DNA from: Candidatus Micrarchaeota archaeon
GTDB taxonomy: Archaea; B1Sed10-29; JAJRYS01
Length of the DNA: 29,685 nucleotides
Assembly (NCBI GenBank): GCA_964496415.1
Contig: CAZBZN010000007.1
Coordinates: 5,470-35,154 of the forward strand
Direction: 5' to 3'
The notes beneath the pieces were generated by a model. The model made no database searches, had not been told where the DNA came from, and saw only the letters and a list, made by a program, of their open reading frames with translations. Of this stretch, positions 4,446 to 26,916 are shown one piece after another; position 1 is the stretch's first letter; each line of letters opens with the position of its first letter. A program made the position numbers and the translations under genes.

Positions 4446-4498
4446 TGTAGCACCTTTTTATATTTTCTTTATTCAAAAATATAAACAGGTTGGTTTAG

Positions 4499-5119: not shown

Positions 5120-5184
5120 TTGTTGTTTTTATAACAAAATCTTTTTAAATTATTAGTTGATTATTAGGTAAAAAGGTGAAATAA

Positions 5185-6587: not shown

Positions 6588-6624
6588 ACGTCAGTTTTTT
6601 AAGCTCATGCTCTTTATTTTACTC

Positions 6625-10302: not shown

Positions 10303-12888
10303 ATGTTCCAATGGCTCACTTTATTATTAATTTTAGCTTCAGCTTCACTGCCTCCAATTCCTTCATCAGATCCAATTACTGTTATTAGTTATGCTGTAAA
10401 GGCAAGCAGTGAACTTCAAAAACTTCACACTCCTCCAGATGTCTATTATTATTCTGAGAAATACTGCTCTAATCTTAGCAAGCCTTATGTAGTAAATGCT
10501 TGGCTTCAAGCTGAAAAAACAAAATCAAAAGCAAAAGAACTGAGATTATCTGCTTCAAGGGTGATTGTTTACCTGACTGCAAAGGTTTCAGTCGGCTATG
10601 ACTTTTTAATAGAGGATTATTATGAAGCTGGTGAAGAGTATAAGAAGACAATCAGTTCAGCAGGTGCTGTTCTTGAATCTTTTAGAAAAGAGCTTTCTAA
10701 AGAAGTTTTTTTACTTGACTTGCTTGGCGCTGACATTAACCCATCTTCAAGACAAGTGTTTGAGGAAGGAGTCAAGGCTTTAAAAGCATTCAGCAAACCA
10801 ACTGGAAGTTGTGACGACTCTTTTTCAGGAAAGATTTCATGCGTGCTCTTAAAAGCAAAAAATCAAAAGTATTTTCAAAAAATAAGCTTTTATAATTCAG
10901 TAGTTTCACCTGATAATTCTTCCCTGTTATTTTACTTTTACTTGTTTAGGAAGAATGTTAGTAAAGTTGAGAATGATTTAAAAGAGCAGTATTTTGGTTT
11001 AGTTAAAGAGTATTCTAAGAAGTTTGCTGACTTGAAAGCTTTGGTTAAAAGAGTAAAACAAGACAAGCTTGTCAGGATAATTGAAGAAGACTCTGGTGAT
11101 GAGGTTGTTGCTTCTAAGCCTTACTCTCTGCAAGAGTTATTTAAAGAAGTTTCTGAACAGATTTCATCAGCAGAGTTTGAAAAGAAAAAAGCAGAGAGTT
11201 TTTTCACTTCACATGAAGACAATTTCCTCTATAACGCAATAATTCATTATAAGAAAGCAGTTTGTCATCTTGATACTGTTTTTTCTAAGATAAATGAGAG
11301 TTATAAGAGAGCTGAGCTTGTCTTAAAATCAAAGAAAGAAAAAGCAAGATCCTTGCTTGATTCAGCGTGCAGTGGCTCCTTTTATTTAAAAGGAAAAGAG
11401 TTGTTTGAAAAAGCAGCAAGAGAGCAAAGCTTTTATCAAGCATTTTTAGATTATCTTGGTTCTATAAGATATTTAAGGCTTTCATGCAGTGGTTTTGAAG
11501 AGAAAAAACAGTATGCTTTAACCTTGGCTTCACAGCTTAACTTGTTAGGAGTAAATGTATTCAATGAACAACAAGGGTTAAATGAGGTTTCACCTAGCAA
11601 GCTTTCTCAGATTATTTATTCGCTTGAAATGAAAGCAGAACCTTTCCTTAAGAAGATTGAAGAATTGAAGCTTTTCTTACTTCAAAACGAGGAGTTAGTT
11701 GATGATGAGGATGCTGGGTTTTTAAGAAACACTGAAGTTCTTCCTTATGTTGCTGATGAGTATTTCAAAGCAATTGCTCTTTATGAAAAAGTAAGCACTT
11801 TGCTTGAAAAGTCAAAAACCAAAGCAGCTAAGAATGTGAGGGTTTTTTATTCTGTTCATTTTGGCAATGTTGAATGTAATTCCATTTATCATGGAGTTCT
11901 TAGTTTATTTGCTTATAATCAAAACCAATTCAATGTTTCTGGTTTTAGGTTTCATGCTCCTGAAGGGCTTATAATTGAAAACACTACAGGGGATTTTGTT
12001 AAACTGTCCTTACTTCCATTTGAAGAAAAGACAATTAAACTTAAGGTGGTTGGTGTTCCTCTTGAATGCAGTTATTCTAAGGATATGATTAAAGTATCTT
12101 CACATTATTGTTTTAGTCAAGGAGTTGTTCCTATAAGAAAGCCATCTAATTCTTCACTGCTTTTCTTAGAAGAACCATTTACAGTCAGGAAAAATACCAC
12201 TCATTTTCTTGTTGAAGTTCCTTGCCTTAATTTTTCACTTCATTATCACTTTATTAATTCCTCTACAAAAACAAATAACACTTTTTTCGTTCCAATAATC
12301 AATCATACTCCTGTTTTTGAAAGTTATGATCAGTTAAAGCAGGATTTTGAAATTAAAGAAAACAATACGCCAATGTATGATTCTTATGATAATGTTAATG
12401 AAAGCAAAGTTGACTTGACTTCTTTTACTGTTCTGCCACCAAAGAAAGCTTATGATCGTGACCTGTCAGGCCTTCTTGACAGAACATTTTACCATGACAT
12501 TAATGACTCTTTTTTTGATTACTTTGACTCACGGTATGAGTATTACAAGTCAATTATTAAAGAGCCGGATTCTTCAAAAGAGATTATTAAAGCAGTGAAT
12601 GACCTTTGTGAAACTGCTTTAGAGAAGCTAACTTCAGCAGCAGAACATGTTAAAACACAAGGAATTTCTTCAGAGTTTTTATCAAAAGCTCAAAAGGCTT
12701 ATGATGCAGGTCATTGCGTTCTTTCAATTTATTATTCTAACAAGGTCTTGGTTCAAAAGAAAGAGAATCTTTTTAAGTACCTTGTCTTGCTTCCGCTTTT
12801 TACTTTTTTGTTTATTTCCTTGAGAAAGCCAAAACAGAATAATGTGAGAATTGCTAAAAGAGTGCGGAGGTTTCATTTTTCAAAGTAA
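10303..12888 (+). CDS. Large secreted, C-terminally anchored hypothetical surface protein (861 aa)
   Basis: N-terminal hydrophobic signal (MFQWLTLLLILASAS), C-terminal TM (YLVLLPLFTFLFISL) plus basic tail, about 15 N-x-S/T sequons. Confidence 0.75.
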   Translation: MFQWLTLLLILASASLPPIPSSDPITVISYAVKASSELQKLHTPPDVYYYSEKYCSNLSKPYVVNAWLQAEKTKSKAKELRLSASRVIVYLTAKVSVGYDFLIEDYYEAGEEYKKTISSAGAVLESFRKELSKEVFLLDLLGADINPSSRQVFEEGVKALKAFSKPTGSCDDSFSGKISCVLLKAKNQKYFQKISFYNSVVSPDNSSLLFYFYLFRKNVSKVENDLKEQYFGLVKEYSKKFADLKALVKRVKQDKLVRIIEEDSGDEVVASKPYSLQELFKEVSEQISSAEFEKKKAESFFTSHEDNFLYNAIIHYKKAVCHLDTVFSKINESYKRAELVLKSKKEKARSLLDSACSGSFYLKGKELFEKAAREQSFYQAFLDYLGSIRYLRLSCSGFEEKKQYALTLASQLNLLGVNVFNEQQGLNEVSPSKLSQIIYSLEMKAEPFLKKIEELKLFLLQNEELVDDEDAGFLRNTEVLPYVADEYFKAIALYEKVSTLLEKSKTKAAKNVRVFYSVHFGNVECNSIYHGVLSLFAYNQNQFNVSGFRFHAPEGLIIENTTGDFVKLSLLPFEEKTIKLKVVGVPLECSYSKDMIKVSSHYCFSQGVVPIRKPSNSSLLFLEEPFTVRKNTTHFLVEVPCLNFSLHYHFINSSTKTNNTFFVPIINHTPVFESYDQLKQDFEIKENNTPMYDSYDNVNESKVDLTSFTVLPPKKAYDRDLSGLLDRTFYHDINDSFFDYFDSRYEYYKSIIKEPDSSKEIIKAVNDLCETALEKLTSAAEHVKTQGISSEFLSKAQKAYDAGHCVLSIYYSNKVLVQKKENLFKYLVLLPLFTFLFISLRKPKQNNVRIAKRVRRFHFSK

Positions 12889-13500: not shown

Positions 13501-13641
13501 ATGGCTGAGTTTAGACCTACTTGCAGGCAATGTTTTCTTGAAAGAGGTCAGACAATATTGCTTGAGAAAGTAAACGGGGAGTGGGTGTGTCCAGTAAACC
13601 CAAAGCACAAGACAAAGTTTGATGACGTGCAAATAGCGTGA
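13501..13641 (+). CDS. Small Zn-ribbon-like protein, 46 aa (missing from the ORF track)
   Basis: My translation: MAEFRPTCRQCFLERGQTILLEKVNGEWVCPVNPKHKTKFDDVQIA*. CxxC...CPxxxxH, strong SD, GTGA overlap with the next ORF. Confidence 0.85.
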   Translation: MAEFRPTCRQCFLERGQTILLEKVNGEWVCPVNPKHKTKFDDVQIA

Positions 13642-14099
13642 CTGGTTTTATGTTTAAGAAGATGAATAATAGAGAAGTGAAATTATTTTTGAGTTTAGTT
13701 TTTCAGGAAGCAGAAGAAGCTTTAAAAGGAGAGTTACTTTTTTTGTTTAATAAAGGAAAAATAAGTGAAAGAGTCCTAGCTGAGTATTTCCCAGTTCAGT
13801 ATTCTGAAGCAAAGGCTTATTTAGGAAAGAAAAGGCTTTTTGACAAAAATAATTACTTGCTTTGTTACGCACTTGATCAGGGTTGTAAGCTTTGTAAGAT
13901 AAATAGTTTTAAGGCAGAGACTTTTGCAGGCAAGACAGTAAAAAAGCTTTATGTTTCCTGTGATGTTGGTACTGTTGAAGTACAAGCAGGAGAATTGCTT
14001 GGCCCAGTAAATTTAGGTGATGTTGTGTTGGTAAAGGGGGATACTGCTGTTTTTAAACTTTCTCAAAAGGAGATAACCCAACTTAATAAGGTTCTTTAA
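13638..14099 (+). CDS. Hypothetical protein with a C-terminal HypC-like OB-fold segment
   Basis: LLGPVNLGDVVLVKGDTAVFKLSQKE resembles HypC LLxxVKVGDYVLVHxGxAIxKIDEEE; adjacent to the hydrogenase genes. Confidence 0.55.
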   Translation: MTGFMFKKMNNREVKLFLSLVFQEAEEALKGELLFLFNKGKISERVLAEYFPVQYSEAKAYLGKKRLFDKNNYLLCYALDQGCKLCKINSFKAETFAGKTVKKLYVSCDVGTVEVQAGELLGPVNLGDVVLVKGDTAVFKLSQKEITQLNKVL

Positions 14100-14418
14100 G
14101 CCCTTCTGCTAAGAAAAGATTTTTCATTTTTTCTCCGAAATCAATACCAAACATTTCACTGCATTCTCTTTCATACAAGTCGCAGTTTTCAATTAATGAC
14201 TTGAATCTTTTCGCTTTTTTCCCATCCAGTTTTACTACGTAGTTTATTATTTTTCCTTTTTCTTTTTCATCAAAATGATAAATCATATAATACTGGTTGT
14301 TTATTTTTTCACAAGTGATTGTTATCAGCCTTGAGCCTTTTGCTTTTTCTTTTTTTAATATACTTTCAAGCTTTTCTAAGCTTATCTCAATATTTTTTGC
14401 TTTATGTTTTACCTTCAT
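14083..14418 (-). CDS. Hydrogenase subunit, NuoC/EchD/MbhK-like (complex I 30 kDa family)
   Basis: RLITITC, IYHFD, YERECSEMFGIDF, LFL. Confidence 0.85.
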   Translation of the reverse strand: MKVKHKAKNIEISLEKLESILKKEKAKGSRLITITCEKINNQYYMIYHFDEKEKGKIINYVVKLDGKKAKRFKSLIENCDLYERECSEMFGIDFGEKMKNLFLAEGLKEPY

Positions 14419-14450
14419 GCTAAAATATTAGTTTTCTTTCTTATAAAAGC

Positions 14451-14918
14451 ATGATTGTTTTTTTAGGAATAGGTAATGAATTAAGAAGAGATGACTCTTT
14501 TGGTTTAGAGTTATTAAAAGATCTTGAAAAGATACTGAAGGGTAAGAAGTTTAAGTTTGTAAGTTGTGGTACTGTTCCTTTTTCTTATTTAAGCAAGCTT
14601 CCTAAATCCCCTAAAGCGTTATTTATTTTGGATACTGTTATCAATGAAGAATTAAGTCCAGGGTCTTTGATAATAAAAGAACTTAAACAGGAATCTGAGT
14701 TAAGTGGTTTTGTTTCAAGTCACAAGCTCCCCTTTTCTTTGTTATTCAAGTTTGTTAACCCTGAAAGAACATTCCTTGTGGGATTTGTTCCAAAGGACTT
14801 TGGCTATGGAACAGGTCTTTCTTCTGAAGCATGCGAAGCCAAAAAAAGAGCAGTAAAAGAAATTAAGATTATTCTTAAGAGTTTAAAGTGCTGGGATGAA
14901 TCCAGCAGCTGCTTCTGA
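14451..14918 (+). CDS. hycI: Hydrogenase maturation endopeptidase (HycI family)
   Basis: LGIGNELRRDDSFG, CGTVP, ILD, SSHKLP, FGYGTGLS. Confidence 0.9.
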   Translation: MIVFLGIGNELRRDDSFGLELLKDLEKILKGKKFKFVSCGTVPFSYLSKLPKSPKALFILDTVINEELSPGSLIIKELKQESELSGFVSSHKLPFSLLFKFVNPERTFLVGFVPKDFGYGTGLSSEACEAKKRAVKEIKIILKSLKCWDESSSCF

Positions 14919-16175
14919 AAATTTAAATAACGCTGATGGGAATATTCCAAAAATCAATACTAATACTGTGAGGAACAATACTGGTAGGAGTTTTTTCCAA
15001 GAGTACTTTTTGATAATCTTTTTACTTTTTCCTTTTGAGAAGAAAAGGAAGTAAATTATCCTTAAGTAAAAGATCATTGCAAGTAAGTAAGAAGCAAGCA
15101 TTACTGCTACTGGTATTATTTTCCCAGAATCAAGTACAGATACTATTATAGCTACTTCTGACACGAAACAATTTGTTGGCGGTATTCCAGCAACGGCTAG
15201 TACGCTTATTAAAAAACAAGCGCCTGCAATATTCCTAGCGTAGCCTTTTAGTTTACGTAAGTCAGTAAAGCTTGTTCTTGTTGTTATTAGTCCTAATGAG
15301 AGGAACATGAGGGTCTTAGCTATTCCGTGGTTAAACATGTGAAGTAATGCTGGTGCTTGGCTTATTGCAGCGCTTATTCCAAGAGTTATGTAACCAACGT
15401 GGATTATTGAAGAATATGCAATGAGTTTTCTTATATCCCATTCAGTTAATCCTCTTATTCCAGCGTAGAGCATTGAAGCAGCTGCAAGGACTAACAGCAA
15501 TGGCCTTGCTTGTATAAAGTTTGCATATTTGAATATTCCGAAAAACCCAAGATTTATTATTATGCCTGAGAAAACAGCTGCTGTTGGGATTGATGAAGAA
15601 GAGTAAACGTCAGGAAGCCACACGTGAAATGGGAATAAAGCACTCTTTACTATTAACCCCATCAGTATTAATATTGCAATAAGTAAGGGAGTAGTACTTG
15701 TTGGATTTAAGGAACTAGTATAAGAGAAGTTTAAAGCTATCCCAGTCATGGTTAGCGTTGAACCAAGAAGATTTATTATTAAGTATTTTTCAGCAGCTTT
15801 CAGACTTTCTTTGGTTGCATTATAAACAGCAATACTTGAACTAATTATGATTGTCTCAAACAATACGTAAAATAAGAAAAAGTTCTCTGAAAATGAAAGT
15901 AAGAAGCATGAAAAGATTATTGTTTCATAAAGCACTAGTTTTTCCCAGCTTTCTTTTGAGTAAACGATTAAAGGCAATGAACTGAGAAGGCAAAAGGCTA
16001 TTAAAAAAGCTGATAATGCGTCCAAGTAATGAGAAGCAGGGTCATGAGTCAATGAAAGTATCCCAGTGACTAATAATGCTGTTAGAATCACTGCTTTTGA
16101 AAGCTGCTTATTTTTTCTAACAAAAAAACTTACCAAGATGCTTGTAGTGAATATTAGTAAAAGGTTTTCGATCAT
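14883..16175 (-). CDS. Antiporter-like membrane subunit (NuoN/NuoM/MrpD family)
   Basis: FE, AAEKY, KSALFPFHVWLPDVY, KLIAYSSIIHVGY, HMFNHGIAK, GIPP, FVSE. Start re-assigned to ATG 16175. Confidence 0.9.
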   Translation of the reverse strand: MIENLLLIFTTSILVSFFVRKNKQLSKAVILTALLVTGILSLTHDPASHYLDALSAFLIAFCLLSSLPLIVYSKESWEKLVLYETIIFSCFLLSFSENFFLFYVLFETIIISSSIAVYNATKESLKAAEKYLIINLLGSTLTMTGIALNFSYTSSLNPTSTTPLLIAILILMGLIVKSALFPFHVWLPDVYSSSSIPTAAVFSGIIINLGFFGIFKYANFIQARPLLLVLAAASMLYAGIRGLTEWDIRKLIAYSSIIHVGYITLGISAAISQAPALLHMFNHGIAKTLMFLSLGLITTRTSFTDLRKLKGYARNIAGACFLISVLAVAGIPPTNCFVSEVAIIVSVLDSGKIIPVAVMLASYLLAMIFYLRIIYFLFFSKGKSKKIIKKYSWKKLLPVLFLTVLVLIFGIFPSALFKFSEAAAGFIPAL

Positions 16176-16176
16176 T

Positions 16177-17535
16177 TTACCACACCATAAGAATGTTTGG
16201 ATAAACACCTACGATGATTATTAGTCCTGTTAAGATTATTAACGTTGTAAGCATCTCGTTCCTTATTTTTTTGAATTTTGTTTTTCCAGAAGCAAAGAAC
16301 ATTGAATGAGCAAACCACAAACAGTAACCTAAAGTAAGAAGACTTCCGAAGATTAGTAACAAGTCAGCAGCTAAATAATTCAATCCTCCTAAGAAGATGA
16401 GTACTTCGCTTTGGAAAGCAGCAAAGAAAGGAGTGCCTGCAAGGCTTAAGATACTTGCAAAGAAGGCAATGGTGAGTATTGGGTTTTTTCTATATAGTCC
16501 TTTTATTTCATCAATCTTCTTGGTTCCAGTAGCATAAATTATTACTCCTGCAACTAAAAATAGCAGGCTTTTTGTTAGAGCTTGTGTTACTAAGTGAAAT
16601 CCCGCTCCTTTGAGAGCGTAAAGGGTTAGTGCTCCTGCTCCAAAAACTATCATTCCTCCTTGGCTTACAGTACTCCATGCTATTGCTTTCTTTAAATGAG
16701 TTTGTCTGAATACCATTAGTGCTCCTAAATACAGGCTTATCAAAGCGATTATTATTAATGTTGTTGAATAGGTTTTCATAACTTCTGGGAATAATGAAGA
16801 TACTCTTAACAAGGCATAGCCTCCTACGTTTACCATTAGCCCGCTTAGCATTGCTGATATTGGTGTTGGAGCAACAGAGTGAGTGTCAGGAAGCCAGTCA
16901 TGAAATGGAAACACTCCTTGTTTTATCAGGAAAGAAATCATCAAAGGCAGGAATACTATTGCTGGAGCTGTTTTTGCCTCTAGCAAGTTAAAAGAGTCAG
17001 TGGAAGCATGGAACAAACCAATTCCAAGAAGTAAAGAAGTAGAAGCAACAGCCATGTAAATAAAGTATTTCAAACCAATTTCTCTTGCTTTTTCTTCACC
17101 CCATTCAACTACCAAGAAGTAAGAGGCTACAAGCATCACGTCCCAAAACAGGTAAAAAGTGATTAAATTAACTGATAAAACTACTCCTATCATGCTTACT
17201 GTGAATAATCCTGTTAAAAAATAATAAAGCTGTTTGTTTTTTTGTTCCTGTAAGTAAGCTTTTGAATAGTAAATGCTTATTCCAGAAACCAGTAAAATCA
17301 TTGCTAAGAAAGGATAACTAAGCCAGTCAACTAAGAAAGCAAGGTTAAGACCAAAATCAGGAGCCCATTCTATAGTTTCTATAATGGGTTTGCTGGGATA
17401 ATGGAGAACTAAGATTAATAAACTTAAAAGCATACTTGCTGAGAGTATTAAGTGAAGATTTTTCTTAATCCTTTTTTCTTTTATCAAACAAAGTATGCTT
17501 GCAAGCAAAGGAATAATTATTACAAGCCAGAGCAT
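16177..17535 (-). CDS. Antiporter-like membrane subunit, NuoM-like
   Basis: IEWAPDFGLNLAFLVDWLS, FYLFWD, KYFIY, KQGVFPFHDWLPDTHSVAPTP, FQSE. Confidence 0.9.
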   Translation of the reverse strand: MLWLVIIIPLLASILCLIKEKRIKKNLHLILSASMLLSLLILVLHYPSKPIIETIEWAPDFGLNLAFLVDWLSYPFLAMILLVSGISIYYSKAYLQEQKNKQLYYFLTGLFTVSMIGVVLSVNLITFYLFWDVMLVASYFLVVEWGEEKAREIGLKYFIYMAVASTSLLLGIGLFHASTDSFNLLEAKTAPAIVFLPLMISFLIKQGVFPFHDWLPDTHSVAPTPISAMLSGLMVNVGGYALLRVSSLFPEVMKTYSTTLIIIALISLYLGALMVFRQTHLKKAIAWSTVSQGGMIVFGAGALTLYALKGAGFHLVTQALTKSLLFLVAGVIIYATGTKKIDEIKGLYRKNPILTIAFFASILSLAGTPFFAAFQSEVLIFLGGLNYLAADLLLIFGSLLTLGYCLWFAHSMFFASGKTKFKKIRNEMLTTLIILTGLIIIVGVYPNILMVW

Positions 17536-19268
17536 GAAATCACCATGATTATCACTATGCCAATAAACGCGATGGCTATGCTTTTTTCAAGGCTTTTAGG
17601 AGTAAATACTTCAAGAGACCTGCTTGTTTTTGAAATAAGTTTAAGCATTCCAGGATTTTCAACAACAAACTTAACATACCTTGTTTCTATTTTTTCCCAA
17701 ATTCTTTCTTTTGCATTGAGTATTTTGGTTATTACTTTCATGGTGTTGATTGCTAGTTTGTCATACCATGATGAAAGTTTTGTTGAGAGCATGTAAAGTT
17801 CTTTTTTCTGCCATCTTGGCAAGTATTCATAATAAATGTAAAATCCTACAAAGCCTATTAAGATAAGGACAAACGGGTCAATGATCCATTTAAAAGGAAG
17901 CTGTGTCCCCATTAAGTTAGAATATAATGGGGTTAAAGGGATTAAAGAAATCATTAGTAAGAGTGTTATAAATTCTGGGATAAGTAATCCTGCAGGAGCT
18001 ATTTTCAAACTTACTTTTTTCGGTCCTTTATAGAGGTAGTATAATAATCTCATTGCGTACATTACTGTAATGACAAAACCAATATCTATCAAGATTTTTA
18101 GTTTTGTATTTTTTAGAGCCACGAACATGAATTCTTTACTCCAAAAACCATTAAGAGGAGGAATTGCTGCAAGTGACAAGATTGCAAGAGAAAATATTAT
18201 GAAAGTGTAAGGCATTTCTCTTGCAATGCTTCCTATTCTTTTAATGTTTCTTTCTCCAGTCAAATGGATTATGTTACCAGAACACATGAACATAAGGCTT
18301 TTGAACATTGCATGCGATGCTAAATAAAACATTCCAGCAGTTATTCCTTTCCATGACAAGCCTACTGCAATAATCATGTAAGAAATCTGCGAAGTGGTCG
18401 AGTAAGCAGCTATTCTTTTAATATCCTCTGAACCCAAAGCAAAAAGTCCAGTAATTATCCCAGATATTGCTGCAAAGTATAGTACAAAATGCCATACTGG
18501 AGTTTGAGATATTAATGGGTAGAAGACTGCAAAAAAGTAAACAGGCGCTTGAACTAAAGTTGCTGAATGCAAGAAAGCAGATACTGGGGTTGGTGCTTCC
18601 ATAGCATCAGGAAGCCATATTTGAAAAGGAACTTGTGCTGCTTTAGCAAACCCAGCTATTGCGAATAAAATTGCCACGTAAAATAAAACGGTGGCTGGAA
18701 CAGTTGAAGAAAGAATTTCAGGGATGAGGGTGGTTTTTGTTTGTAAGAACAGCAAGAAAATCCCTATCAGTAAAGCAAGGTCTCCGAATTTTGTTATAAT
18801 AAAAGCTTCTGCTCCAGCAATCCTTGCTTTTCTCTTTTTGAAATTAAAGTTTATCAAAAAATAAGAGCAAAGAGTGGTTAATTCCCAGAAAAAGAATAAT
18901 TGTATTAGGTCAGGTGACAATGCCAACCCAACCATTGCCCAAGTAAAAACAAGCATGAGTGAGTAAAACCTTCTCAGAGCTTTTGTTTTTTTCATATATG
19001 TTAAGGAATAAAACAACACAATGCTTGAAATAGTTAGGATTACGATTGTAAAAACTACTCCTAGTTTTGACCACCAGATTCCAAAATCTGCTATCGGAAG
19101 CCACCTTACTTTAACAAGGTTTGCTTCAAAGCCTCTTAAGAAAACCAGTATTAGTGAAATTAAGGGGTAAAAAGGAGCTGTTTTGTATAGTTTTTCTTTT
19201 AACGAGATTATCCCTGCTCCTATTAATGGAAGTAAAAACACAAGAGCTTCAAGTAATACTTCATTCAT
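17520..19268 (-). CDS. Antiporter-like membrane subunit, NuoL-like with lateral helix
   Basis: FFFWE, KAAQVPFQIWLPDAMEAPTPVSAFLHSAT, DIKRIAAYSTTSQ, HAMFKSLMF, GFWSKE, long amphipathic C-terminal stretch plus a final TM. Confidence 0.93.
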   Translation of the reverse strand: MNEVLLEALVFLLPLIGAGIISLKEKLYKTAPFYPLISLILVFLRGFEANLVKVRWLPIADFGIWWSKLGVVFTIVILTISSIVLFYSLTYMKKTKALRRFYSLMLVFTWAMVGLALSPDLIQLFFFWELTTLCSYFLINFNFKKRKARIAGAEAFIITKFGDLALLIGIFLLFLQTKTTLIPEILSSTVPATVLFYVAILFAIAGFAKAAQVPFQIWLPDAMEAPTPVSAFLHSATLVQAPVYFFAVFYPLISQTPVWHFVLYFAAISGIITGLFALGSEDIKRIAAYSTTSQISYMIIAVGLSWKGITAGMFYLASHAMFKSLMFMCSGNIIHLTGERNIKRIGSIAREMPYTFIIFSLAILSLAAIPPLNGFWSKEFMFVALKNTKLKILIDIGFVITVMYAMRLLYYLYKGPKKVSLKIAPAGLLIPEFITLLLMISLIPLTPLYSNLMGTQLPFKWIIDPFVLILIGFVGFYIYYEYLPRWQKKELYMLSTKLSSWYDKLAINTMKVITKILNAKERIWEKIETRYVKFVVENPGMLKLISKTSRSLEVFTPKSLEKSIAIAFIGIVIIMVISCSGL

Positions 19269-19497
19269 GTTTTTCCCCTTTCAACAAGTAAATCAATAAC
19301 AAAACACAAAACCCTGCTGTTTCTAATACCATAGTTATTATTAACAGTTTCCAGGCTCCTGTTTTTACTAACAGTAAGTTTGGAGTTGTCAGGCTTAAGG
19401 TTATCCCACAAAGCCTTTTGCTTTTTTCTTTAGAAAGCAAACAAATTATTCCTAATACTAACAACCCAAAGCTTGTTTCAACGTACATTTTTCTCAT
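19261..19497 (-). CDS. Small 3-TM subunit, NuoK/MrpC-like
   Basis: Three hydrophobic segments, LGI in TM1, LETAG in TM3, position immediately before the NuoL homologue. Confidence 0.6.
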   Translation of the reverse strand: MRKMYVETSFGLLVLGIICLLSKEKSKRLCGITLSLTTPNLLLVKTGAWKLLIITMVLETAGFCVLLLIYLLKGEKHE

Positions 19498-19678
19498 TCA
19501 CCATCCTTACTCCAATTGAGATTATTATTATCACAATTAGTACTGAAAGCATTACTTCTTTTCCAATTAATTCTCCAGGAACATGTTTTTGAAAGATGAT
19601 TACTTTATCTGATAAACTTGCTATTAGCAAAACGCCAAATGCAAGTACTATCATTTTTAACCGATGATTTTTACTCAT
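19478..19678 (-). CDS. Small 2-TM subunit, NuoJ C-terminal half-like
   Basis: TM-loop-TM, with KEVMLSVLIVIIIISIG resembling NuoJ TM5. Start re-assigned to ATG 19678, overlapping the upstream stop. Confidence 0.5.
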   Translation of the reverse strand: MSKNHRLKMIVLAFGVLLIASLSDKVIIFQKHVPGELIGKEVMLSVLIVIIIISIGVRMVNEKNVR

Positions 19679-19892
19679 ACTCCCACTTCTCATAAAAGTA
19701 AACAACAACACTTATGCCAGCAAACAACACTGCCTGCATAATGCCAACCAAAAGATTATCAACTGCTATTATTAAGCCAAGGAATAATCCTGTAAGCATT
19801 AAGGAAACCACCATTTTTTCTTTCCTAAGTATCACTACTGAAAATGCTGAAACCAGAGTACATAAACAAAGCAAGGTTATTAAATCAAGCAT
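19671..19892 (-). CDS. Small 3-TM subunit, NuoJ N-terminal half / MbhD-like
   Basis: SAFSVV...VGIMQAVLFAGISVV resembles NuoJ TM1-3 (Q-x-x-V-Y-A-G). Confidence 0.65.
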   Translation of the reverse strand: MLDLITLLCLCTLVSAFSVVILRKEKMVVSLMLTGLFLGLIIAVDNLLVGIMQAVLFAGISVVVYFYEKWEYE

Positions 19893-20743
19893 ACTAGAAC
19901 ACCAATTATTGAAATAATCAAGGGATATTTAAACCAATTACTTGCTTGGTCAATCCTATACCTTGGAAATAAGGCATTCATAAAACTGAGAAGGAATGTT
20001 ATTGGAATGGCTTCAAGTAAGTTAATCATGCTTGGTCCAAAAAGCAAAGCTGCGCCAAAAACTCCTACGAATAAGAATTCAACATTTTTAGCAAGTTTTA
20101 GTATTGCTAGTTTTCTTCCACTAAGGTCTGTTTCATAACCTGCTATTAGTTCTTGTTCAGCAGTTGAGATGTCAAAAGGAAGTTTTTCAAGTTTTGCAGC
20201 TGAAGAAAGCAAATAACCAATAAATGGGATGATTAAGACAGGTGAAAATCCTTTCAATTCAGAAAGGCTTAATGCTTTTGAAAAAATCATAAAACTAACT
20301 ACTGAAAGAATAAAGCTTAGTTCATAAGAGAAGAATAAGAGTGTTTTTCTCATCGAACCAATTACTGCAAAAGGATTTTTTGAACTAACTCCTAAAAACA
20401 TTATCAGAAGGCATGTTAAGTCAAACAAGAGAATTAAGAAGATAAAATCTCCTGGAAAACTAAAAGCATTAAGGTGAAATGGAATAATTAAGATTGAAAA
20501 TAAGCTCAAAGCCAAAACAATTACTGGTATTAAACCCATCACCTTGCTTTGCACTAAATCCTCTTTGTAAAGCAACTTTAAGAAATCAGCAAATGGCTGT
20601 AGGATTCCATAAGGCCCAGTAATCAAAGGACCATGTCTTCTTTGGACTTTTGCAACAGTTTTTCTTTCAACCCACTCAACAAGAAAAGCTAAAAAAATTA
20701 TCGATATTACGATTTCACTGAAATAAACCAACTCTTCAAGCAT
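19880..20743 (-). CDS. Membrane anchor subunit, NuoH/EchB/MbhM-like
   Basis: ERKxxAKVQRRHGP, GILQPFADFLKLLYKE, PFD...AEQELIAGY, PRYRIDQ. Confidence 0.95.
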   Translation of the reverse strand: MLEELVYFSEIVISIIFLAFLVEWVERKTVAKVQRRHGPLITGPYGILQPFADFLKLLYKEDLVQSKVMGLIPVIVLALSLFSILIIPFHLNAFSFPGDFIFLILLFDLTCLLIMFLGVSSKNPFAVIGSMRKTLLFFSYELSFILSVVSFMIFSKALSLSELKGFSPVLIIPFIGYLLSSAAKLEKLPFDISTAEQELIAGYETDLSGRKLAILKLAKNVEFLFVGVFGAALLFGPSMINLLEAIPITFLLSFMNALFPRYRIDQASNWFKYPLIISIIGVLVCLI

Positions 20744-21029
20744 AAACTATCACCAAAGCAGTTATTAAGAAACTAGTTAGCACTATGCTTGCATAAATCG
20801 TGTTTTTAAAGAACAGCAGTAAGAGGATCATGCTTTCAACTATCAAGAACAATGTAGCTGTTTTCAAAAGTTCTGAATGGTACTTTTTAAGCTTTTGAAA
20901 TTCCTTAAATCCAGACACAAAGGGGGTTGTTTTTCTTTTTTTGACATAAAATCCTGGAATGAGATAGATCAATAATGAGAAAATGACACTCACAATAGCA
21001 GCAGCTATTAAGTTATCCAGCACCTTCAC
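20736..21029 (-). CDS. 3-TM subunit, NuoA-like
   Basis: TM1, loop KTTPFVSG (cf. KxxPF/YESG), TM2 LFLIVE, TM3. Confidence 0.7.
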   Translation of the reverse strand: MKVLDNLIAAAIVSVIFSLLIYLIPGFYVKKRKTTPFVSGFKEFQKLKKYHSELLKTATLFLIVESMILLLLFFKNTIYASIVLTSFLITALVIVYA

Positions 21030-21354
21030 TCACCAGCTTTTTCTTATTTTTATCACTCATGTCAAAAACTGTTGAAAAACTTATTGCTTTAGTAGGGCAT
21101 ACTTCCTCACACCTACCACAGAAAATGCATTTTCCTAAGTCAACAACCCATGTTCTTTTTTCTTTATCAACTTTTATTGCAAATGCAGGACAGTTAACTG
21201 CGCATAATCCACAGTAAATGCACTTATTTTTATCATGCACGTGCTTTCCCCTATACTCTTTTTGAATTTTAGGGTCACCAAAAGGATACTCTACTGTGAC
21301 TCTTTTTTTGAAAAAATCCCTAACCTCAAACATGATAGCTTTTATTACCTTCAT
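21013..21354 (-). CDS. 2[4Fe-4S] subunit, NuoI/EchF/MbhN-like
   Basis: TVEYP, YRG, CIYCGLCAVNCP, CIFCGRCEEVCP. Confidence 0.95.
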   Translation of the reverse strand: MKVIKAIMFEVRDFFKKRVTVEYPFGDPKIQKEYRGKHVHDKNKCIYCGLCAVNCPAFAIKVDKEKRTWVVDLGKCIFCGRCEEVCPTKAISFSTVFDMSDKNKKKLVSEGAG

Positions 21355-21770
21355 TTTCCAGCACCAAGTTCTTCAGCCATTTTTTTAATAGCAGCAATGA
21401 TTGCTTCTGGTTTAGGAGGACATCCTGGAACATATAAGTCAACTTTGAATAATTTATCAGCAGGTCCTGCAATGTTATAAGAACCAGCAAAAACCCCACC
21501 ACTTATCGCACAACTTCCCAAAGCAATTACTTTCTTAGGTTCAGGGGTTTGTTTTATCACTTCTTTTACTTTATCAACATTTTTCCAGTTTATTGGCCCT
21601 ATTACTATTATTATGTCAGCGTGTTTTGGTGAACCAACAAGTTTTACTCCAAGTCTTTCAGGGTCATACTTTGAAGCTAACGTAGCAAGCAATTCAATAT
21701 CACAACCATTACACCCGCCAGCATTTAAATGATAAATCCAAAGGCTTCTTTTCCTAGCCCATTTTAACAT
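21351..21770 (-). CDS. Group 4 [NiFe]-hydrogenase small subunit (EchC/MbhJ/NuoB-like)
   Basis: GCNGCDIE (CxxC hydrogenase type, not the tandem CC of NuoB), SPKHAD, GSCAISGG, VPGCPP. Confidence 0.95.
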   Translation of the reverse strand: MLKWARKRSLWIYHLNAGGCNGCDIELLATLASKYDPERLGVKLVGSPKHADIIIVIGPINWKNVDKVKEVIKQTPEPKKVIALGSCAISGGVFAGSYNIAGPADKLFKVDLYVPGCPPKPEAIIAAIKKMAEELGAGK

Positions 21771-22912
21771 TTTCTCACCAATTCTTGAAAAGTTATTATC
21801 TTTTCTTCACCGCTATTCACATCAATTACACATGCTCTATCAGTACAGCTAAAGCAGGGGTCAAGAGAAATGACCACTGAGGCAGCGTCAGAAATCATTT
21901 CCCCAGCAAGCATTTCAGGCAAAGCAATAAAGTTAGCATAAGTAGGAGGCCTTATCCTAAGTCTTTTTGGAGTAGTTTTTCCAGTAAGCAAGTAATGAAA
22001 GTTTTCACCTCTTGGCGCTTCCACTCTCGCAACGCTTCTTATTCCTTCTTCAAGCACTACCTTGTCTTTTCCCCGGTAATCTTGTTCTGGAAGGTCAAGT
22101 AATTGGTTTATGATTTCAATGCTCTCAAAGATTTCCTTTAATCTTACAATTGTTCTTGATAAAGAGTCACCTTTTCTTTCCCTCACCACCTTAAAATCAG
22201 TAAAGTAATACGCATCATAGCCTTCAATTTCCCTAATATCCCTTTTCAAGCCAGAGCCTCTTGCAACAGGCCCTACGACACCAAGCTCTTCAGCTCTTTT
22301 CTTTTTAAGAACTCCTATTCCTTTTAGTCTTTCAACATAAGGGTCATTACTCATTATTTCCTCGTATAACCTTTGAGTGTTTGCTTTTATCATTCCAAGC
22401 TTTTTTCTAACAAACTCTGCAGTTTCTTTAGTAATGTCTTTTCTCACTCCACCGAACTCACTTACTCCGTAATGCCTTCTTGCTCCTGAAATTTTTTCAA
22501 CAGTTTCAAGCACGTCTTCTCTATAAGTCATAGCATGCATGAATAAAGTATCAAACCCAAGCAAGTTTGACTGGACTGCAAGACACAATAAGTGACTTTG
22601 AATTCTTTCAAATTCAGACATTATGCTTCTAATCATTTTTGCTTTCTTGCTTGGTTCAAGCCCAGCAGCTCTTTCAACAGCTTTAGTAAAAGCAGAATTA
22701 TGAGTGTTAGAACAAATACCGCAGATTCTCTCTACTAAGTAAATTACTTTATCATAAGACCTTGACTCAGCTAGTTTTTCAATTCCCCTATGATTATAAC
22801 CTAAGAAAAACTCAACATTAAGAATTTTTTCGCCTTCAACATAAAGCTTCAAGTGTTCTGGTTCTTTAAGCAAAGGATGATACGGCCCTATTGGAATACA
22901 AGTGCCTTTCAT
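21764..22912 (-). CDS. Group 4 [NiFe]-hydrogenase large (catalytic) subunit
   Basis: GPYHP, HRGIEK, L1 ERICGICSNTH, EAPRGE, L2 DPCFSCTDR followed by a 23-aa extension. Start re-assigned to ATG 22912. Confidence 0.96.
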   Translation of the reverse strand: MKGTCIPIGPYHPLLKEPEHLKLYVEGEKILNVEFFLGYNHRGIEKLAESRSYDKVIYLVERICGICSNTHNSAFTKAVERAAGLEPSKKAKMIRSIMSEFERIQSHLLCLAVQSNLLGFDTLFMHAMTYREDVLETVEKISGARRHYGVSEFGGVRKDITKETAEFVRKKLGMIKANTQRLYEEIMSNDPYVERLKGIGVLKKKRAEELGVVGPVARGSGLKRDIREIEGYDAYYFTDFKVVRERKGDSLSRTIVRLKEIFESIEIINQLLDLPEQDYRGKDKVVLEEGIRSVARVEAPRGENFHYLLTGKTTPKRLRIRPPTYANFIALPEMLAGEMISDAASVVISLDPCFSCTDRACVIDVNSGEEKIITFQELVRKC

Positions 22913-22941
22913 AATGATCAATAACACTAACTCATAACTTG

Positions 22942-24282: not shown

Positions 24283-24864
24283 ATGGTTGACAAGCAATTA
24301 GTTGACTTGATGAGAAAAGCTGCTGAAAAAGGAGAAAACTTTTCAGTAACCGACGAGCAGTTTGCTGAATTAATTGATTTTAAGGAAAAACCAAACTCTG
24401 ATGTTGGGTTAGCTGTGATGAAAAGAATCATCAAAACGATTGAACAGCATTATAACAAACCAGCCCCTGTAAGAGTAAAAGCTTTTGAAAAACAATTCCC
24501 TGAGAAAAAAGTAGAAGTATGGCTTTTCAGTGACTCAGGAAGGCTTTGCAGTCAAGGAATATTTGACAGGATTTACGTGATGAAAGGTAACATTTACTCT
24601 GCTTCTTTTTCAAGAGAAGACGAACCAATAAGAACAAACGGAGTACTTGTATGTTCTTTGCTTGAGAGTTTTGCTGCTTTAGTAGCGTCAAGAATGGAGA
24701 CTGCTTCAACAGAATATGAAGTAATAAACATGGATGTTGTTAAAACTCTTGACCAAGCAAACTTGACCATGCCTGGTTTTCTAAAGTTTTTCATGCAAAA
24801 AAATAACAAAGAAACTCATATTAACTCGTTAGTAAATGCAAACGCAGAGGTAATAGTCACTTAA
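24283..24864 (+). CDS. Stand-alone protein resembling the C-terminal anticodon-binding domain of O-phosphoseryl-tRNA synthetase (SepRS_C)
   Basis: Colinear resemblance to the SepRS C-terminus as I recall it: TDEQFAELI, P..DVG, H..KPAP, KKVEV, RLC, IYVMKGNIY, NGV, ESFAALVA, VKTLDQANL, NNKETHI. No catalytic class II motifs. Confidence 0.7.
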   Translation: MVDKQLVDLMRKAAEKGENFSVTDEQFAELIDFKEKPNSDVGLAVMKRIIKTIEQHYNKPAPVRVKAFEKQFPEKKVEVWLFSDSGRLCSQGIFDRIYVMKGNIYSASFSREDEPIRTNGVLVCSLLESFAALVASRMETASTEYEVINMDVVKTLDQANLTMPGFLKFFMQKNNKETHINSLVNANAEVIVT

Positions 24865-25896
24865 TTAGTACCTTGGAAAAGGTTTGAAGGGGTTTAAGAG
24901 CAGTTCTATTGTTCTTTGATTGCTTTTCTCAATATTTACTTTTGTAGGTTTAAATTTTTCATAGTATTTTTTCCATGTGGCATCTATCGCTTTTTTAATT
25001 TCAGTGCTTAATTTCCAAGAACCACAGTATTCTTCTCTAAACTCTTTTAATAGATATCTTGAAATTTCAGCCCCTTTTACAATTTTCTTTTTTGTATTCA
25101 TTTTTTCAACAAACTCGTATTGTTTAGCAGAGATTCTGTTAAGTTTTCTTATTAATGTATTAATGTCATTTGTTTCATAATCATTTATTAGGATTGAAAA
25201 CCCGGCAACTTTGTCTGATAATCGTGCTTTGCTTATCACATGGCCAAGCCAGTCTATCTTTAATTTATTCATTTTATATGAAATAAATAGCTTTACTTCT
25301 TTTATTTTTGTGTTTTTGCCCCATAGGTCACGTGGGTTGGCTCTGTATAAATGATACACAATTACTTGTTTTCCATTGATTTTATAAGGGCCACTTATAT
25401 TGAGTCCTGCTGTTCTGAAAACATCATAATAAAAAGCTCTAGCATATGAATCTATTGATAGTATCAATTGTGCAAGTTCATCTTTTTCTTCTTCTGCGTT
25501 TTTAAGTTTGATTCTTTTTACTTCTTTTTCTATTTGTTTTTCTTTGGTATTATTTATTGCATGCCAGTTTCTTCCTGTTTTATTTTTTAGTACTTTTATC
25601 CATGTTTTTAGAAAAGTATTAATTTCTTGATTATTCATTTTTCTTTCAATTCTGTTTATTTTTAGTCCAACAAGCCACAAGCTATTAAAAGAATGTCTTA
25701 TTGTAGATGCGTTAAGAATAAATTCTGAGATTTTAGGTATAGAGAGATCTTTTATAGAGTCCCATACTTCAAGAGTATCTATAAAGTCAAAATTTGTTAC
25801 TATTTGTGAAGCGCTGATTGGCCAAAAAGTTCTTGAATCAGTTCTTGAAAAAGCCATTGCTATTGATTCTAACATTTTTTGCAAGTCATTCGTCAT
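24865..25896 (-). CDS. Hypothetical protein (343 aa, soluble, AT-rich)
   Basis: Long ORF overlapping the upstream PEP-mobile gene by 11 nt; no family recognised. Confidence 0.8.
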   Translation of the reverse strand: MTNDLQKMLESIAMAFSRTDSRTFWPISASQIVTNFDFIDTLEVWDSIKDLSIPKISEFILNASTIRHSFNSLWLVGLKINRIERKMNNQEINTFLKTWIKVLKNKTGRNWHAINNTKEKQIEKEVKRIKLKNAEEEKDELAQLILSIDSYARAFYYDVFRTAGLNISGPYKINGKQVIVYHLYRANPRDLWGKNTKIKEVKLFISYKMNKLKIDWLGHVISKARLSDKVAGFSILINDYETNDINTLIRKLNRISAKQYEFVEKMNTKKKIVKGAEISRYLLKEFREEYCGSWKLSTEIKKAIDATWKKYYEKFKPTKVNIEKSNQRTIELLLNPFKPFPRY

Positions 25897-26209
25897 ATTC
25901 TACGACTCCTTTTGACCCATCAACAGTGATTTTCATAAAATCTTTTATTTTTTTAGTTGCTTTTTCTGTCCCAACAACACAGGGAATGCCAAATTCTCTT
26001 GAAATCATTGCAGCATGGCTGCATACTCCGCCATAGTCAGTTACGATGCCGATGACTTTTGACAATATTGGTGTGAAGGCGGGGGTAGTTGCAGTAGTGA
26101 CGAGAATCATGCCTTTTTTTACTTTTTTAAAATCTTTTGATGATTTAACCACTACTGCTTTTCCAGATATTTTTCCAGGGGACGCTGGAATTCCTCTTAG
26201 AATTTTCAT
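25886..26209 (-). CDS. Stand-alone PEP-utilising enzyme mobile (swivelling phospho-His) domain
   Basis: GIPASPG, ILVT..TTP, IVTDYGGVCSHAAMISREFGIPCVVG, VDGSKGVV. Confidence 0.92.
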   Translation of the reverse strand: MKILRGIPASPGKISGKAVVVKSSKDFKKVKKGMILVTTATTPAFTPILSKVIGIVTDYGGVCSHAAMISREFGIPCVVGTEKATKKIKDFMKITVDGSKGVVEYDE

Positions 26210-26247: not shown

Positions 26248-26916
26248 ATGAACAAAATGAAAAACCTACTCATTGATATTGAAGGTGTTTTGATTAATGG
26301 TAGGGACTTGTTTGAAGTAGCCCGTAAGTACTTGAATCAGCGTGAAGAAAGAGAAGTAAGAGAGATTCTTAGGGTTGAAAAGTATTGGAAGCATCCTGAT
26401 TTTGTTAGGAGGCTTGTTGAGATAAGCTCTGAAGTTTATTCAAGGCTGATGAAAGATGAGAATCTTAAGAAGAAAGTGCTGTTAGAGATAAAGAGAAGAA
26501 TGAAAGTTGATCCTGACAAGTTGAAAAAAGAGATTCTTGAGTATAAGAAAGAAACAGGTGCAAAAGTTTATATTCACAGTGATTTTGGAAGGTCGCCGGT
26601 GTCAAGAATATTTGCTGAGTTAGTCGGCGCTGATGGGGTTGTTGAAAAGTTTGATCCTGAAGCATTAAAGAAAGGAATAATGATTGATGATTTCAGCAAA
26701 CTAAAAAGAGAAGAGTTCATGAGAAGGGCTTTTGGCAAGCTTGAGAAAAAAGAAGAAAAGAGAAGGGTTTATTCTGCTGCTATTAGAATTCTTCCAAGGC
26801 CTGAAGAAGTTAAAGTAAGTAAAAACCAAAGAAGGCTTGAAGACTTTAAAGCAAAAATTAAGACTCCAAGTATTGTTGATGTAGTAAAAAAACTTAGAAA
26901 AAGGCGACGTAAGTAA
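26248..26916 (+). CDS. HAD-like hypothetical protein with polybasic C-terminus
   Basis: LLIDIEGVL (motif I-like, DxE), IHSD (motif II-like), MIDD (motif IV-like), ends KKLRKRRRK*. Confidence 0.55.
   Translation: MNKMKNLLIDIEGVLINGRDLFEVARKYLNQREEREVREILRVEKYWKHPDFVRRLVEISSEVYSRLMKDENLKKKVLLEIKRRMKVDPDKLKKEILEYKKETGAKVYIHSDFGRSPVSRIFAELVGADGVVEKFDPEALKKGIMIDDFSKLKREEFMRRAFGKLEKKEEKRRVYSAAIRILPRPEEVKVSKNQRRLEDFKAKIKTPSIVDVVKKLRKRRRK

Follow-up and report, generated by a model that had tools for sequence, protein, structure and literature searches.

A complex I-shaped [NiFe]-hydrogenase cluster from a 0.69-Mb DPANN archaeon, with no genes for HypCDEF or ATP synthase found in its genome

Among described enzymes, the closest to the gene cluster analyzed here is Hfo of the Bathyarchaeia, the first [NiFe]-hydrogenase found with the same 11 subunits and gene organization as Fpo/Nuo, classified in HydDB as 4g and placed in lineage 4g-6 (Loh, Herve & Brune, 2021, PMC7886697). 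Bathy-6 is an Hfo host, and Hfo-like clusters were also reported in Pyrodictium delaneyi and Ca. Methanomethylicus (PMC7886697); according to a 2026 study, subgroup 4g is polyphyletic. Three antiporter-like subunits were described for Hyf of E. coli at a time when NuoA and NuoJ seemed absent from hydrogenases (Moparthi & Hagerhall, 2011, PMC3144371), a gap that the description of Hfo closed in 2021. The MBH of Pyrococcus furiosus combines one antiporter-like subunit with an Mrp-type Na+ module (PMC7886697), NuoD and FpoD have lost the Ni-ligand cysteines (PMC7886697; PMC3144371), and a group 4e hydrogenase has been reported from the Micrarchaeota, in Ca. Fermentimicrarchaeum limneticum (Kadnikov et al., 2020, as cited in PMC8561730). 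The present cluster lies in a stretch of 29,685 nucleotides (the window; positions 5470-35154 of contig C7 of genome G000) from a micrarchaeon, which bears out the possibility raised in a first-pass annotation, made from the letters of the window alone, that the host is a DPANN archaeon. The genome comprises 687 kb (~0.69 Mb) in 41 contigs and is 91.35% complete and 0.32% contaminated. DPANN archaea are usually described as purely fermentative and host-dependent, and Ech-type enzymes have six subunits, one of them antiporter-like.

The cluster consists of 11 consecutive minus-strand open reading frames (ORFs; 22927-14883), whose neighbors overlap by 8-41 nt, in the gene order D-B-I-(A)-H-x-x-(K)-L-M-M, followed by a convergent protease gene and then a gene for a C subunit (Table 1). 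Sequence comparison supports the prediction of a true membrane-bound [NiFe]-hydrogenase of group 4, its catalytic module being combined with NuoH-, NuoL- and NuoM-like subunits and a third, M-type, antiporter-like subunit. The observation made in the first pass is thereby confirmed and its interpretation partly supported: the ORFs and their order, taken from an ORF list, are as described there, the names of the small ORFs aside, and the account of the parts was otherwise correct, except that the NuoC-like ORF, although within the annotated range, had gone unnamed. The large subunit has 387 residues as called; the likely ATG start lies at 22912, in agreement with the end coordinate given in the first pass and with the 382-residue database record P0001. 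All four Ni-ligand cysteines are retained, in the motifs CGICSNTH and DPCFSCTDR, which both satisfy the published L1 and L2 patterns, C[GS][ILV]C[AGNS]xxH and [DE][PL]Cx[AGST]Cx[DE][RL] (PMC7886697), and a tail of 23 residues follows L2. These features, as well as a CxxC motif in the small subunit (found as CNGC) and a maturation protease beside the operon (above the TIGR00072 cut-off), had been noted in the first pass and were all borne out.

The large subunit matched the Pfam families Complex1_49kDa (6.9e-59) and NiFeSe_Hases (8.4e-16). Its best matches among solved structures (phmmer against the PDB) were HycE (7z0s_E, 8.2e-78, 265 bits) and MbhL (6cfw_L, 7.7e-71, 242 bits), followed by weaker matches to Nqo4 (2fug_4, 4.8e-48, 167 bits) and an MBS subunit (6u8y_L, 2.2e-41), and its scores against NCBIfam models were far under the cut-offs for both NuoD (291.7 vs 360) and FpoD (281.6 vs 600). 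In BLAST searches against E. coli, the large subunit gave 269 bits with HycE and 142 bits with NuoCD, and the small subunit 119 bits with HycG and 102 bits with NuoB. Overall, Hyc proteins are the higher-scoring matches for the large, small and I subunits and Nuo proteins for H, L and M, a pattern that fits the first-pass description of an enzyme intermediate between hydrogenase and complex I. The presence of the Ni ligands and of the protease led us to reject a quinone-, F420- or sulfur-reducing enzyme of the Nuo, Fpo or MBS kind.

The membrane arm begins with a NuoH-like subunit, the predicted link between the peripheral and membrane arms, which scored 85.9 bits with NuoH, 64.3 bits with HycD and 58.5 bits with HyfC of E. 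coli in BLAST; no ortholog above 36% identity was found among the 31 phylum genomes searched. The NuoL/ND5-type subunit of 582 residues (L582) aligned with the NuoL model NF005141 over residues 47-577 (1e-100), yet stayed under the curated cut-off. Its final hydrophobic segment (564-582) follows ~80 polar residues and is colinear with the lateral helix and last transmembrane (TM) helix of E. coli NuoL. An AlphaFold2 model made from 23 sequences (mean predicted local distance difference test score, pLDDT, 79.8; predicted TM-score 0.81) places helices at 485-537, 539-553 and 560-579, where the pLDDT is 40-66. NuoL/ND5/NdhF chains from complex I or NDH-1 account for 48 of the 50 Foldseek matches listed for this model and MrpA for two, with nearly full-length alignment. 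In a tree of antiporter-like subunits, L582 shares a starred clade (96*) with NuoL and HyfD of E. coli, and its BLAST score with HyfD is 180 bits. Residues E129, K209, H234, K323 and K378 are kept; in the computed alignment columns of the E. coli NuoL residues that we take to be E144, D178, K229, H254, K342 and K399, L582 has E, D, K, H, K and K. Only two closer relatives were present in 5.8 billion proteins (45% and 40% identity), and the nearest named relatives are Chloroflexi proteins at ~40% identity.

The 452-residue M-type subunit reached 261.5 bits against TIGR01972 (cut-off 263.8) and forms a pair with NuoM of E. coli in the tree, on long branches and with a support of 93. The third subunit (N441) gave 118 bits with HyfB, 114 with HyfF and 90 with NuoM in BLAST against E. 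coli, and groups with the antiporter-like subunit of a relative, G008 (96*). Charged residues were located at D132 (TM5), K205 (TM7) and E377 (TM12) in the 452-residue subunit and at E118, K188 and E351 in N441, so that both keep the TM5 acid and TM7 lysine and have, like NuoM, a glutamate at the TM12 position. The conserved charged residues of TM5, TM7 and TM12 are thus kept in all three antiporter-like subunits, whose mutual identity of 25%-31% indicates old paralogs and not recent copies.

Four small membrane ORFs make up the remainder of the arm. The 97-aa ORF has 3 hydrophobic segments, the 73- and 77-aa ORFs 3+2 and the 78-aa ORF 2-3, compared with 3, 5 and 3 in E. coli NuoA, NuoJ and NuoK by the same method. 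Number and topology thus fit 3+5+3 TM segments, and the 73-, 77- and 78-aa ORFs lie between H and L, where J and K sit in complex I operons. In Pfam searches at E<=10 the only match was that of the 97-aa ORF to NuoA (Oxidored_q4, E 0.033, 14.8 bits vs a cut-off of 23.3, colinear over residues 27-93); no match to MbhD or the Mrp small subunits appeared at E<=10, and phmmer searches of the PDB with the 73- and 78-aa ORFs returned nothing relevant. Hidden Markov models of the J-like (35), K-like (46) and A-like (34) proteins from metagenomic operons recovered none of the four ORFs from 5904 genome ORFs. Scores in hhalign were not significant; the 73-aa ORF was colinear there with NuoJ-like proteins at a score of only 6, and it had no family in the ESM Atlas. 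Shuffle tests gave no significance, with 19 to 486 of 500 shuffles reaching the real score (329 for the 73-aa ORF and 30 for the 78-aa ORF). For the 78-aa ORF, the cluster nearest to its Atlas model carries PF00420 (NuoK/MrpC; TM-score 0.90 by query), a match flagged as under the tool's bar, and a search of 5.8 billion proteins for homologs returned only the ORF itself. Resemblances to motifs of E. coli NuoJ, NuoK and NuoA seen by eye were not counted as evidence. Identification of the 97-aa ORF as NuoA is weakly supported, the 78-aa ORF is a lead for NuoK from a structural neighbor of its model, and the 73- and 77-aa ORFs would together represent a split NuoJ, judging from position and topology. 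Of the arm labels assigned in the first pass, H, L and M are therefore upheld by profiles, A stands weakly and K as a lead, and the two halves of J are not upheld beyond position and topology. Profile matches are solid for B, C, D, H, I, L and M and for the third antiporter-like subunit.

In comparison with Hfo, the cluster shares a true [NiFe] large subunit with L1 and L2 and a complex I/Fpo core that includes NuoH and three antiporter-like subunits. Neither an Mrp-type Na+ module nor an FpoFO/NuoEFG input module was found, as in Hfo, and ferredoxin is the presumed partner of both; Hfo is likewise biochemically uncharacterized. The two differ in gene order, which is that of Fpo/Nuo (ABCDHIJKLMN) in Hfo, whereas the window has D-B-I-A?-H-(J?)-(J?)-K?-L-M-M, with C beyond the convergent protease gene. 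In addition, the small subunits of the window are too diverged to recognize, its third antiporter-like subunit is M-type, and its host is a 0.69-Mb DPANN genome with hypCDEF and ATP synthase not found. Hyf (hydrogenase 4, formate hydrogenlyase-2, group 4a) also has a true [NiFe] large subunit, three antiporter-like subunits, a NuoH-like HyfC and a small NuoK-like HyfE. It has HyfA, a formate dehydrogenase partner and a NuoC-fused large subunit, in contrast to the separate C of the window, where no HyfA or formate dehydrogenase domain occurs; the HycE/HyfG clade (100*) is separate from that of the window, and as matches to H, L and M the Nuo proteins outscore those of Hyf. No NuoEFG, formate dehydrogenase or carbon monoxide dehydrogenase domain was detected among the 34 window ORFs scanned, and E. 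coli NuoE, NuoF and NuoG gave no tblastn match in the whole genome, in agreement with the earlier statement that an input module for NADH, formate or CO is lacking.

MBH (group 4d, PDB 6cfw) shares with the window the ferredoxin-dependent, H2-evolving and ion-translocating activity proposed for the latter, and among solved structures MbhL ranks second as a match to the large subunit. Next to its Mrp-type module MBH has a single antiporter-like subunit; the window has three, one of them NuoL-type with a C-terminal extension. The group 4e enzyme of Ca. Fermentimicrarchaeum limneticum is likewise a membrane-bound group 4 [NiFe]-hydrogenase and comes from the same phylum. Eleven-subunit complex I-like enzymes (Fpo-like, NDH-1, Nuo without the N-module) have the same set of core homologs, and the L582 model matches their subunits over the full length, but the window, unlike complex I and Fpo, keeps the four Ni-ligand cysteines and a maturation protease. 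Two broader claims of the first-pass annotation did not hold. Three antiporter-like subunits are not a layout of complex I/Fpo only, since E. coli Hyf has HyfB, HyfD and HyfF (PMC3144371), and the architecture is not novel, as the 11-subunit, Fpo/Nuo-like Hfo was published in 2021 (PMC7886697). The architecture has been known since then and is common in metagenomes, and the question of the origin of complex I is not reopened. What is new is the DPANN host, the rearranged gene order, the DPANN-specific clade, and the failure to find HypCDEF and ATP synthase while HypA, the protease and the Ni ligands are kept.

The large subunit was placed in a quick maximum-likelihood tree of 62 rows, comprising the window, the complete set of 12 close database hits (P0002-P0013), a sample of 27 of the 107 records P0014-P0120 (one in four), eight Micrarchaeota relatives, 11 metagenomic operons and three E. 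coli references; labeled Hfo, Mbh, Ech or Eha/Ehb sequences are not among the rows. The window is sister to an 11-row clade (98*), and the joint 12-row clade (99*) includes the Micrarchaeota genomes G006 and G012. It stands apart from the E. coli Hyc/Hyf enzymes with NuoC-fused archaeal ones (100*), from the metagenomic J-K-L-M-A enzymes (100*) and from Mbh-ordered Micrarchaeota enzymes (98*). By this tree the large subunit belongs to a DPANN-specific clade. The closest relatives, at 56%-57% identity, are found in G012 (L024, contig C50, 5559-8246) and G006 (L025, contig C24, 91-2828), in a four-gene set of a NuoC-like subunit, the large subunit, a small-subunit::NuoI fusion (232-249 aa) and a convergent HycI-type protease; in both, the ortholog of the window's NuoC-like subunit lies directly upstream of the large-subunit gene. 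Searches of G006, G012 and G017 gave no match to the NuoH family, and G006 (91% complete) yielded no antiporter-like gene. Such a set may encode a group 4 hydrogenase module without a membrane arm, possibly a soluble one. Three other Micrarchaeota (G004, G013, G028) have the Mbh-like order J-K-L-M-N.

In metagenomes, 80 loci (L045-L124) were found by way of the NuoL-type subunit; 31 carry a large subunit on the same strand, and the other 49 are mostly too short to judge. Among the 31 loci, both L1 and L2 are present in 29, a NuoH-like subunit in 28 and a HycI-like protease in 22, and exactly two antiporter-like genes occur in 30. The typical order is J-K-L-M-A-B-C-D-H-I-HycI. NuoJ (PF00499) and NuoK (PF00420) scored over the Pfam cut-offs in both operons tested, and a profile of 33 A-like proteins hit ND3/NuoA in 16 of its 17 PDB matches (best E 0.0022); a 2026 paper detected no relatives of NuoA (PMC13399641). 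True hydrogenases with NuoA/J/K/L/M-type arms are, as judged from such predicted subunits, common in sequence data. The metagenomic operons share with the window the true large subunit, a NuoL-type subunit of ~582 aa and the HycI-type protease, with ~40% identity in the L and large subunits. They differ in having two antiporter-like subunits, another order, a clade of their own (100*) and recognizable small subunits, and their nearest named L relatives are from Anaerolineae/Chloroflexi. The low identity of NuoH-like proteins in the phylum (at most 36%) and the presence of only two closer NuoL relatives indicate that the window cluster, with its different build, is a rare, rearranged member. 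As a separate observation, a group-3-like [NiFe]-hydrogenase with 25% identity to the window's large subunit is encoded in G007 (L140, contig C1, ~4492-7961), where its neighbors are hypA and a gene of the HypC-like family described below; G007 is a larger relative of the same order (1.3 Mb), and HypD/E/F were not found there.

The energy metabolism of the cell bears on what the complex might do. No hits were obtained in the genome for the ATP synthase A/B subunits (PF00006, ATP-synt_ab) or for H+-pyrophosphatase (H_PPase), and the only three Proton_antipo_M genes are those of the operon, which argues that the complex would be the main generator of membrane potential. Within the window's order, PF00006 turned up in one genome of 18 (G012, as a fragment at a contig end), compared with 16 of the 41 genomes overall. 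Since a V/A-type ATPase is annotated in 82.7% of Micrarchaeota, according to a 2021 survey, the order is unusual in this regard. A fused 2-oxoacid:ferredoxin oxidoreductase is encoded on contig C1 (L125, 1417-3321) as a 634-aa chain with POR_N, PFOR_II, TPP_enzyme_C and two Fer4 domains. The full-score HypA of the genome (NF003008, 157 bits vs a cut-off of 125) overlaps at its end with an Mrp/ApbC-family P-loop ATPase; Thermococcus uses a HypB of the Mrp/MinD type.

On balance, the complex is rather likely to be an Hfo-like, complex-I-shaped, ferredoxin-driven and H2-evolving ion pump that energizes the membrane. The analysis shows which parts there are, that they are conserved and that they are linked; donor, direction, ion, coupling and maturation are inferred, and ferredoxin as donor and ion pumping were also proposed in the first-pass annotation. 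Reduced ferredoxin would be supplied by the fused 2-oxoacid:ferredoxin oxidoreductase, and its electrons would pass through the clusters of the NuoI-like and small subunits to the NiFe site, where protons would be reduced to H2. The free energy released could drive export of H+ or Na+ through the membrane arm, and the resulting membrane potential would drive uptake systems for solutes and not ATP synthesis. Maturation would be completed by Ni insertion through HypA and the neighboring Mrp/MinD-type ATPase and then by cleavage of the tail by the HycI-type protease. The same forward role was raised by Loh et al. for Hfo in metagenome-assembled genomes without ATP synthase (PMC7886697).

That the cluster might have arisen by an assembly artefact, joining a soluble DPANN hydrogenase module to a foreign membrane arm, is suggested by the lack of a NuoH-like gene in the genomes of the closest large-subunit relatives (G006, G012) and by the Chloroflexi affinity of L582. 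In run X2, which comes from a different study than run X1, a single 7298-letter contig matches 14541-21838 except at four letters; it extends from the third antiporter-like gene through the small-subunit gene to the last 75 nt of the large-subunit gene, thus spanning the junction between hydrogenase and membrane arm, and a second contig continues from 21840. The contig break at 21838/21840 is seen in both X1 and X2, inside the large-subunit gene, 75 nt from its end and off the module junction, and is probably a strain-variant bubble. The GC content of the cluster is even (0.33-0.38, and 0.33-0.39 throughout the window), and genes overlap along its whole length. The cluster is considered real; a chimera was rejected on the X2 contig and is hardly credible. 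Short alternative contigs in X1 also lie across 21838-21840. Operation in the opposite direction, in which vent H2 would reduce ferredoxin at the expense of membrane potential, is improbable on the present evidence but has its own merits. It is the direction favored by Loh et al. for Hfo in Bathyarchaeia (PMC7886697). Two sequencing runs contain the stretch almost completely (shares 0.99 and 0.96, the former run being possibly the source of the DNA), and both are labeled hydrothermal vent metagenomes; runs X3-X6, with small shares of the stretch, were excluded from this habitat reading, and no RNA run is listed among those containing it. Hydrothermal vent sites are often rich in H2, and ferredoxin reduction in the uptake direction is known for Eha/Ehb and Ech in methanogens. 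Against this, no builder of the potential to be spent was found among ATP synthase, H+-pyrophosphatase and other antiporter-like genes, and with a ferredoxin-reducing 2-oxoacid oxidoreductase present the cell more likely needs a sink for ferredoxin than a source.

Several points weigh against the forward-running ion pump itself. Sequence does not reveal in which direction the enzyme runs, and the vents are rich in H2. The ferredoxin/H+ couple yields far less energy than NADH/quinone, so that three antiporter-like modules and the NuoH-side channel cannot each move one ion per H2; from general thermodynamics, the complex must depart from complex I in its stoichiometry or in its ion specificity. 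Neither NuoJ nor NuoK can be demonstrated among the small subunits. In the genome, ~9% of which is missing, Pfam/TIGRFAM models gave no hit for HypC, HypD or HypE and only a 35.7-bit partial match for HypF, and the window's order as a whole (18 genomes) yielded no HypD/E/F. Without HypCDEF, textbook maturation could not produce the NiFe(CN)2CO site. The first-pass annotation had named genome-wide absence of hypC/D/E/F as the sign of a nonfunctional hydrogenase, and none of these genes was found. The large subunit might then be a Ni-only, other-metal or apo-protein without the Fe(CN)2CO group, and the complex, not an active hydrogenase, either a relic or one with another role (ion movement or a different redox reaction), which we regard as unlikely. 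Queried by tblastn with HypC/D/E ORFs of a same-class genome and with E. coli HypA-E, the genome likewise returned nothing at E<=0.01. The same six of the 41 genomes searched contain HypD, HypE (over cut-off) and HypF, none of the six being from the window's order, and across the phylum they accompany the large subunit in two of 18 genomes and were not found in the other 16. The window's copy of a HypC-like protein (see below) lacks the near-invariant His and Cys of its family. Speaking for activity, both Ni-ligand motifs and the tail are kept in all eight large subunits of relatives that were read, the protease family is present in 18 of 18 phylum genomes with a large subunit, and HypA is a full-score equivalog. 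All operon ORFs are intact, and in a small, partial sample of the listed strain-variant sites 15 of 25 gene-site calls were synonymous and 10 non-synonymous, with four of four synonymous in the large subunit. Where hydrogenase function is known to have been lost, as in MBS/Mbx, NuoD and Ehr, the cysteines have been lost as well. Because Ni ligands, tail, protease and HypA are all retained, the missing hypCDEF genes are read as a maturation puzzle and not as proof of non-function; the conserved motifs, tail and protease, together with the synonymous variants, suggest that a Ni-site protein is being maintained by selection although the textbook pathway for its cofactor is missing.

A candidate for part of this pathway is encoded next to the protease gene. 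The 153-aa protein with a HypC-like C-terminal domain belongs to a family (relatives L027 and L133-L144; ~165-175 aa) found in 13 of 18 genomes of the order and none of 23 outside it, with 14 representatives in 1.84 billion proteins. The family gene lies directly beside the protease gene in G003, G009, G013 and the window, and beside hypA in G007 (five genomes). Weak matches to PF01455 (HupF/HypC) were obtained for 10 of 13 members, the best at 0.0018 and all under the cut-off, and the only PDB hit of the family profile at E<=10 was the HypC/HupF chaperone 3d3r_A (E 1.1). The family also occurs in genomes in which no large subunit was found (G010, G011, G014-G016). The conserved His and Cys missing from the window's copy are present in the G009 and G013 members. 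The protein is a possible accessory factor or chaperone, a lead and not a finding.

A more speculative and, in our judgment, doubtful extension is that the whole DPANN lineage makes working [NiFe]-hydrogenases without HypC/D/E/F and that, in the present cell, such an enzyme is also the only membrane energizer in the absence of ATP synthase. In the 16 of 18 phylum genomes with a large subunit but no HypD/E/F found, HypA is often kept along with the Ni ligands, tail and protease. Two routes are possible: an unknown supply of Fe(CN)2CO, perhaps involving the order-specific HypC-like protein, or a symbiont that takes the cofactor or the maturases from its host. Ni-insertion and proteolytic steps without the steps that build Fe(CN)2CO are seen here and in most other Micrarchaeota clusters, in parallel to archaeal [FeFe]-hydrogenases without HydEFG, for which Greening and colleagues proposed an alternative pathway (PMC11216029). 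A description of Micrarchaeota group 4 [NiFe]-hydrogenases without Hyp genes was not found in a limited collection of papers. The gap points to a new route of maturation or to dependence on the host for the cofactor, both of which are testable. What makes a complex-I-shaped hydrogenase in a 0.69-Mb DPANN genome interesting is not its parts list but this host, together with the missing genes for HypCDEF and ATP synthase, and a lineage in which no ATP synthase was found is a natural test case for a redox pump that solely energizes transport.

Table 1. Predicted features of the hydrogenase cluster and adjoining genes (window coordinates)
Feature	Coordinates	Strand	Basis and remarks
153-aa protein, HypC-like C-terminal domain, candidate accessory/chaperone	13638-14099	+	order-specific family; divergent copy
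NuoC-like subunit, 111 aa	14083-14418	-	Complex1_30kDa 4.1e-9, 37.5 bits vs cut-off 22.5; protease gene between it and operon
HycI-type hydrogenase maturation endopeptidase	14451-14918	+	TIGR00072 4.5e-21, 75.4 bits vs cut-off 47.45; converges on operon end
Third antiporter-like subunit, M-type (N441, 441 aa)	14883-16208	-	Proton_antipo_M 8.8e-46; Glu in TM12
NuoM-type antiporter-like subunit (452 aa)	16177-17535	-	Proton_antipo_M 6.7e-62
NuoL/ND5-type antiporter-like subunit (L582, 582 aa)	17520-19268	-	Proton_antipo_M 1e-66; long C-terminal helix and terminal TM anchor
78-aa membrane protein, NuoK/MrpC-like lead	19261-19497	-	structural neighbor only
77-aa membrane protein, 2 TM	19478-19711	-	at place of NuoJ C-terminal part; by position and topology only
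73-aa membrane protein, ~3 TM	19671-19892	-	at place of NuoJ N-terminal part; by position and topology only
NuoH-like subunit, link of peripheral and membrane arms	19880-20743	-	NADHdh 1.8e-61
97-aa membrane protein, NuoA/ND3-like, weak support	20736-21029	-	three hydrophobic segments; sub-threshold Oxidored_q4
NuoI/HycF-like 2x[4Fe-4S] subunit	21013-21354	-	two CxxCxxCxxxCP motifs
Small subunit (NuoB/HycG-like)	21351-21770	-	CNGC and two more Cys, for one [4Fe-4S] cluster; Pfam Oxidored_q6 5.4e-30
Large subunit (NuoD/HycE/MbhL homolog)	21764-22927	-	L1 and L2 Ni-binding motifs, 23-residue C-terminal tail

Elsewhere in the window, an 861-aa ORF at 10303-12888(+) had no Pfam match at E<=0.01, and the same was true of ORFs 24283-24864, 24865-25896 and 26248-26916. 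A stand-alone PEP-utilizers mobile domain of 107 aa (4.7e-26), without kinase or synthase domains, is encoded at 25886-26209(-), and a major facilitator superfamily transporter gene at 1949-3076. The genes around the cluster are archaeal and include those for FttA, a proteasome subunit, wyosine synthesis, geranylgeranyl reductase and archaeal D-aminoacyl-tRNA deacylase.

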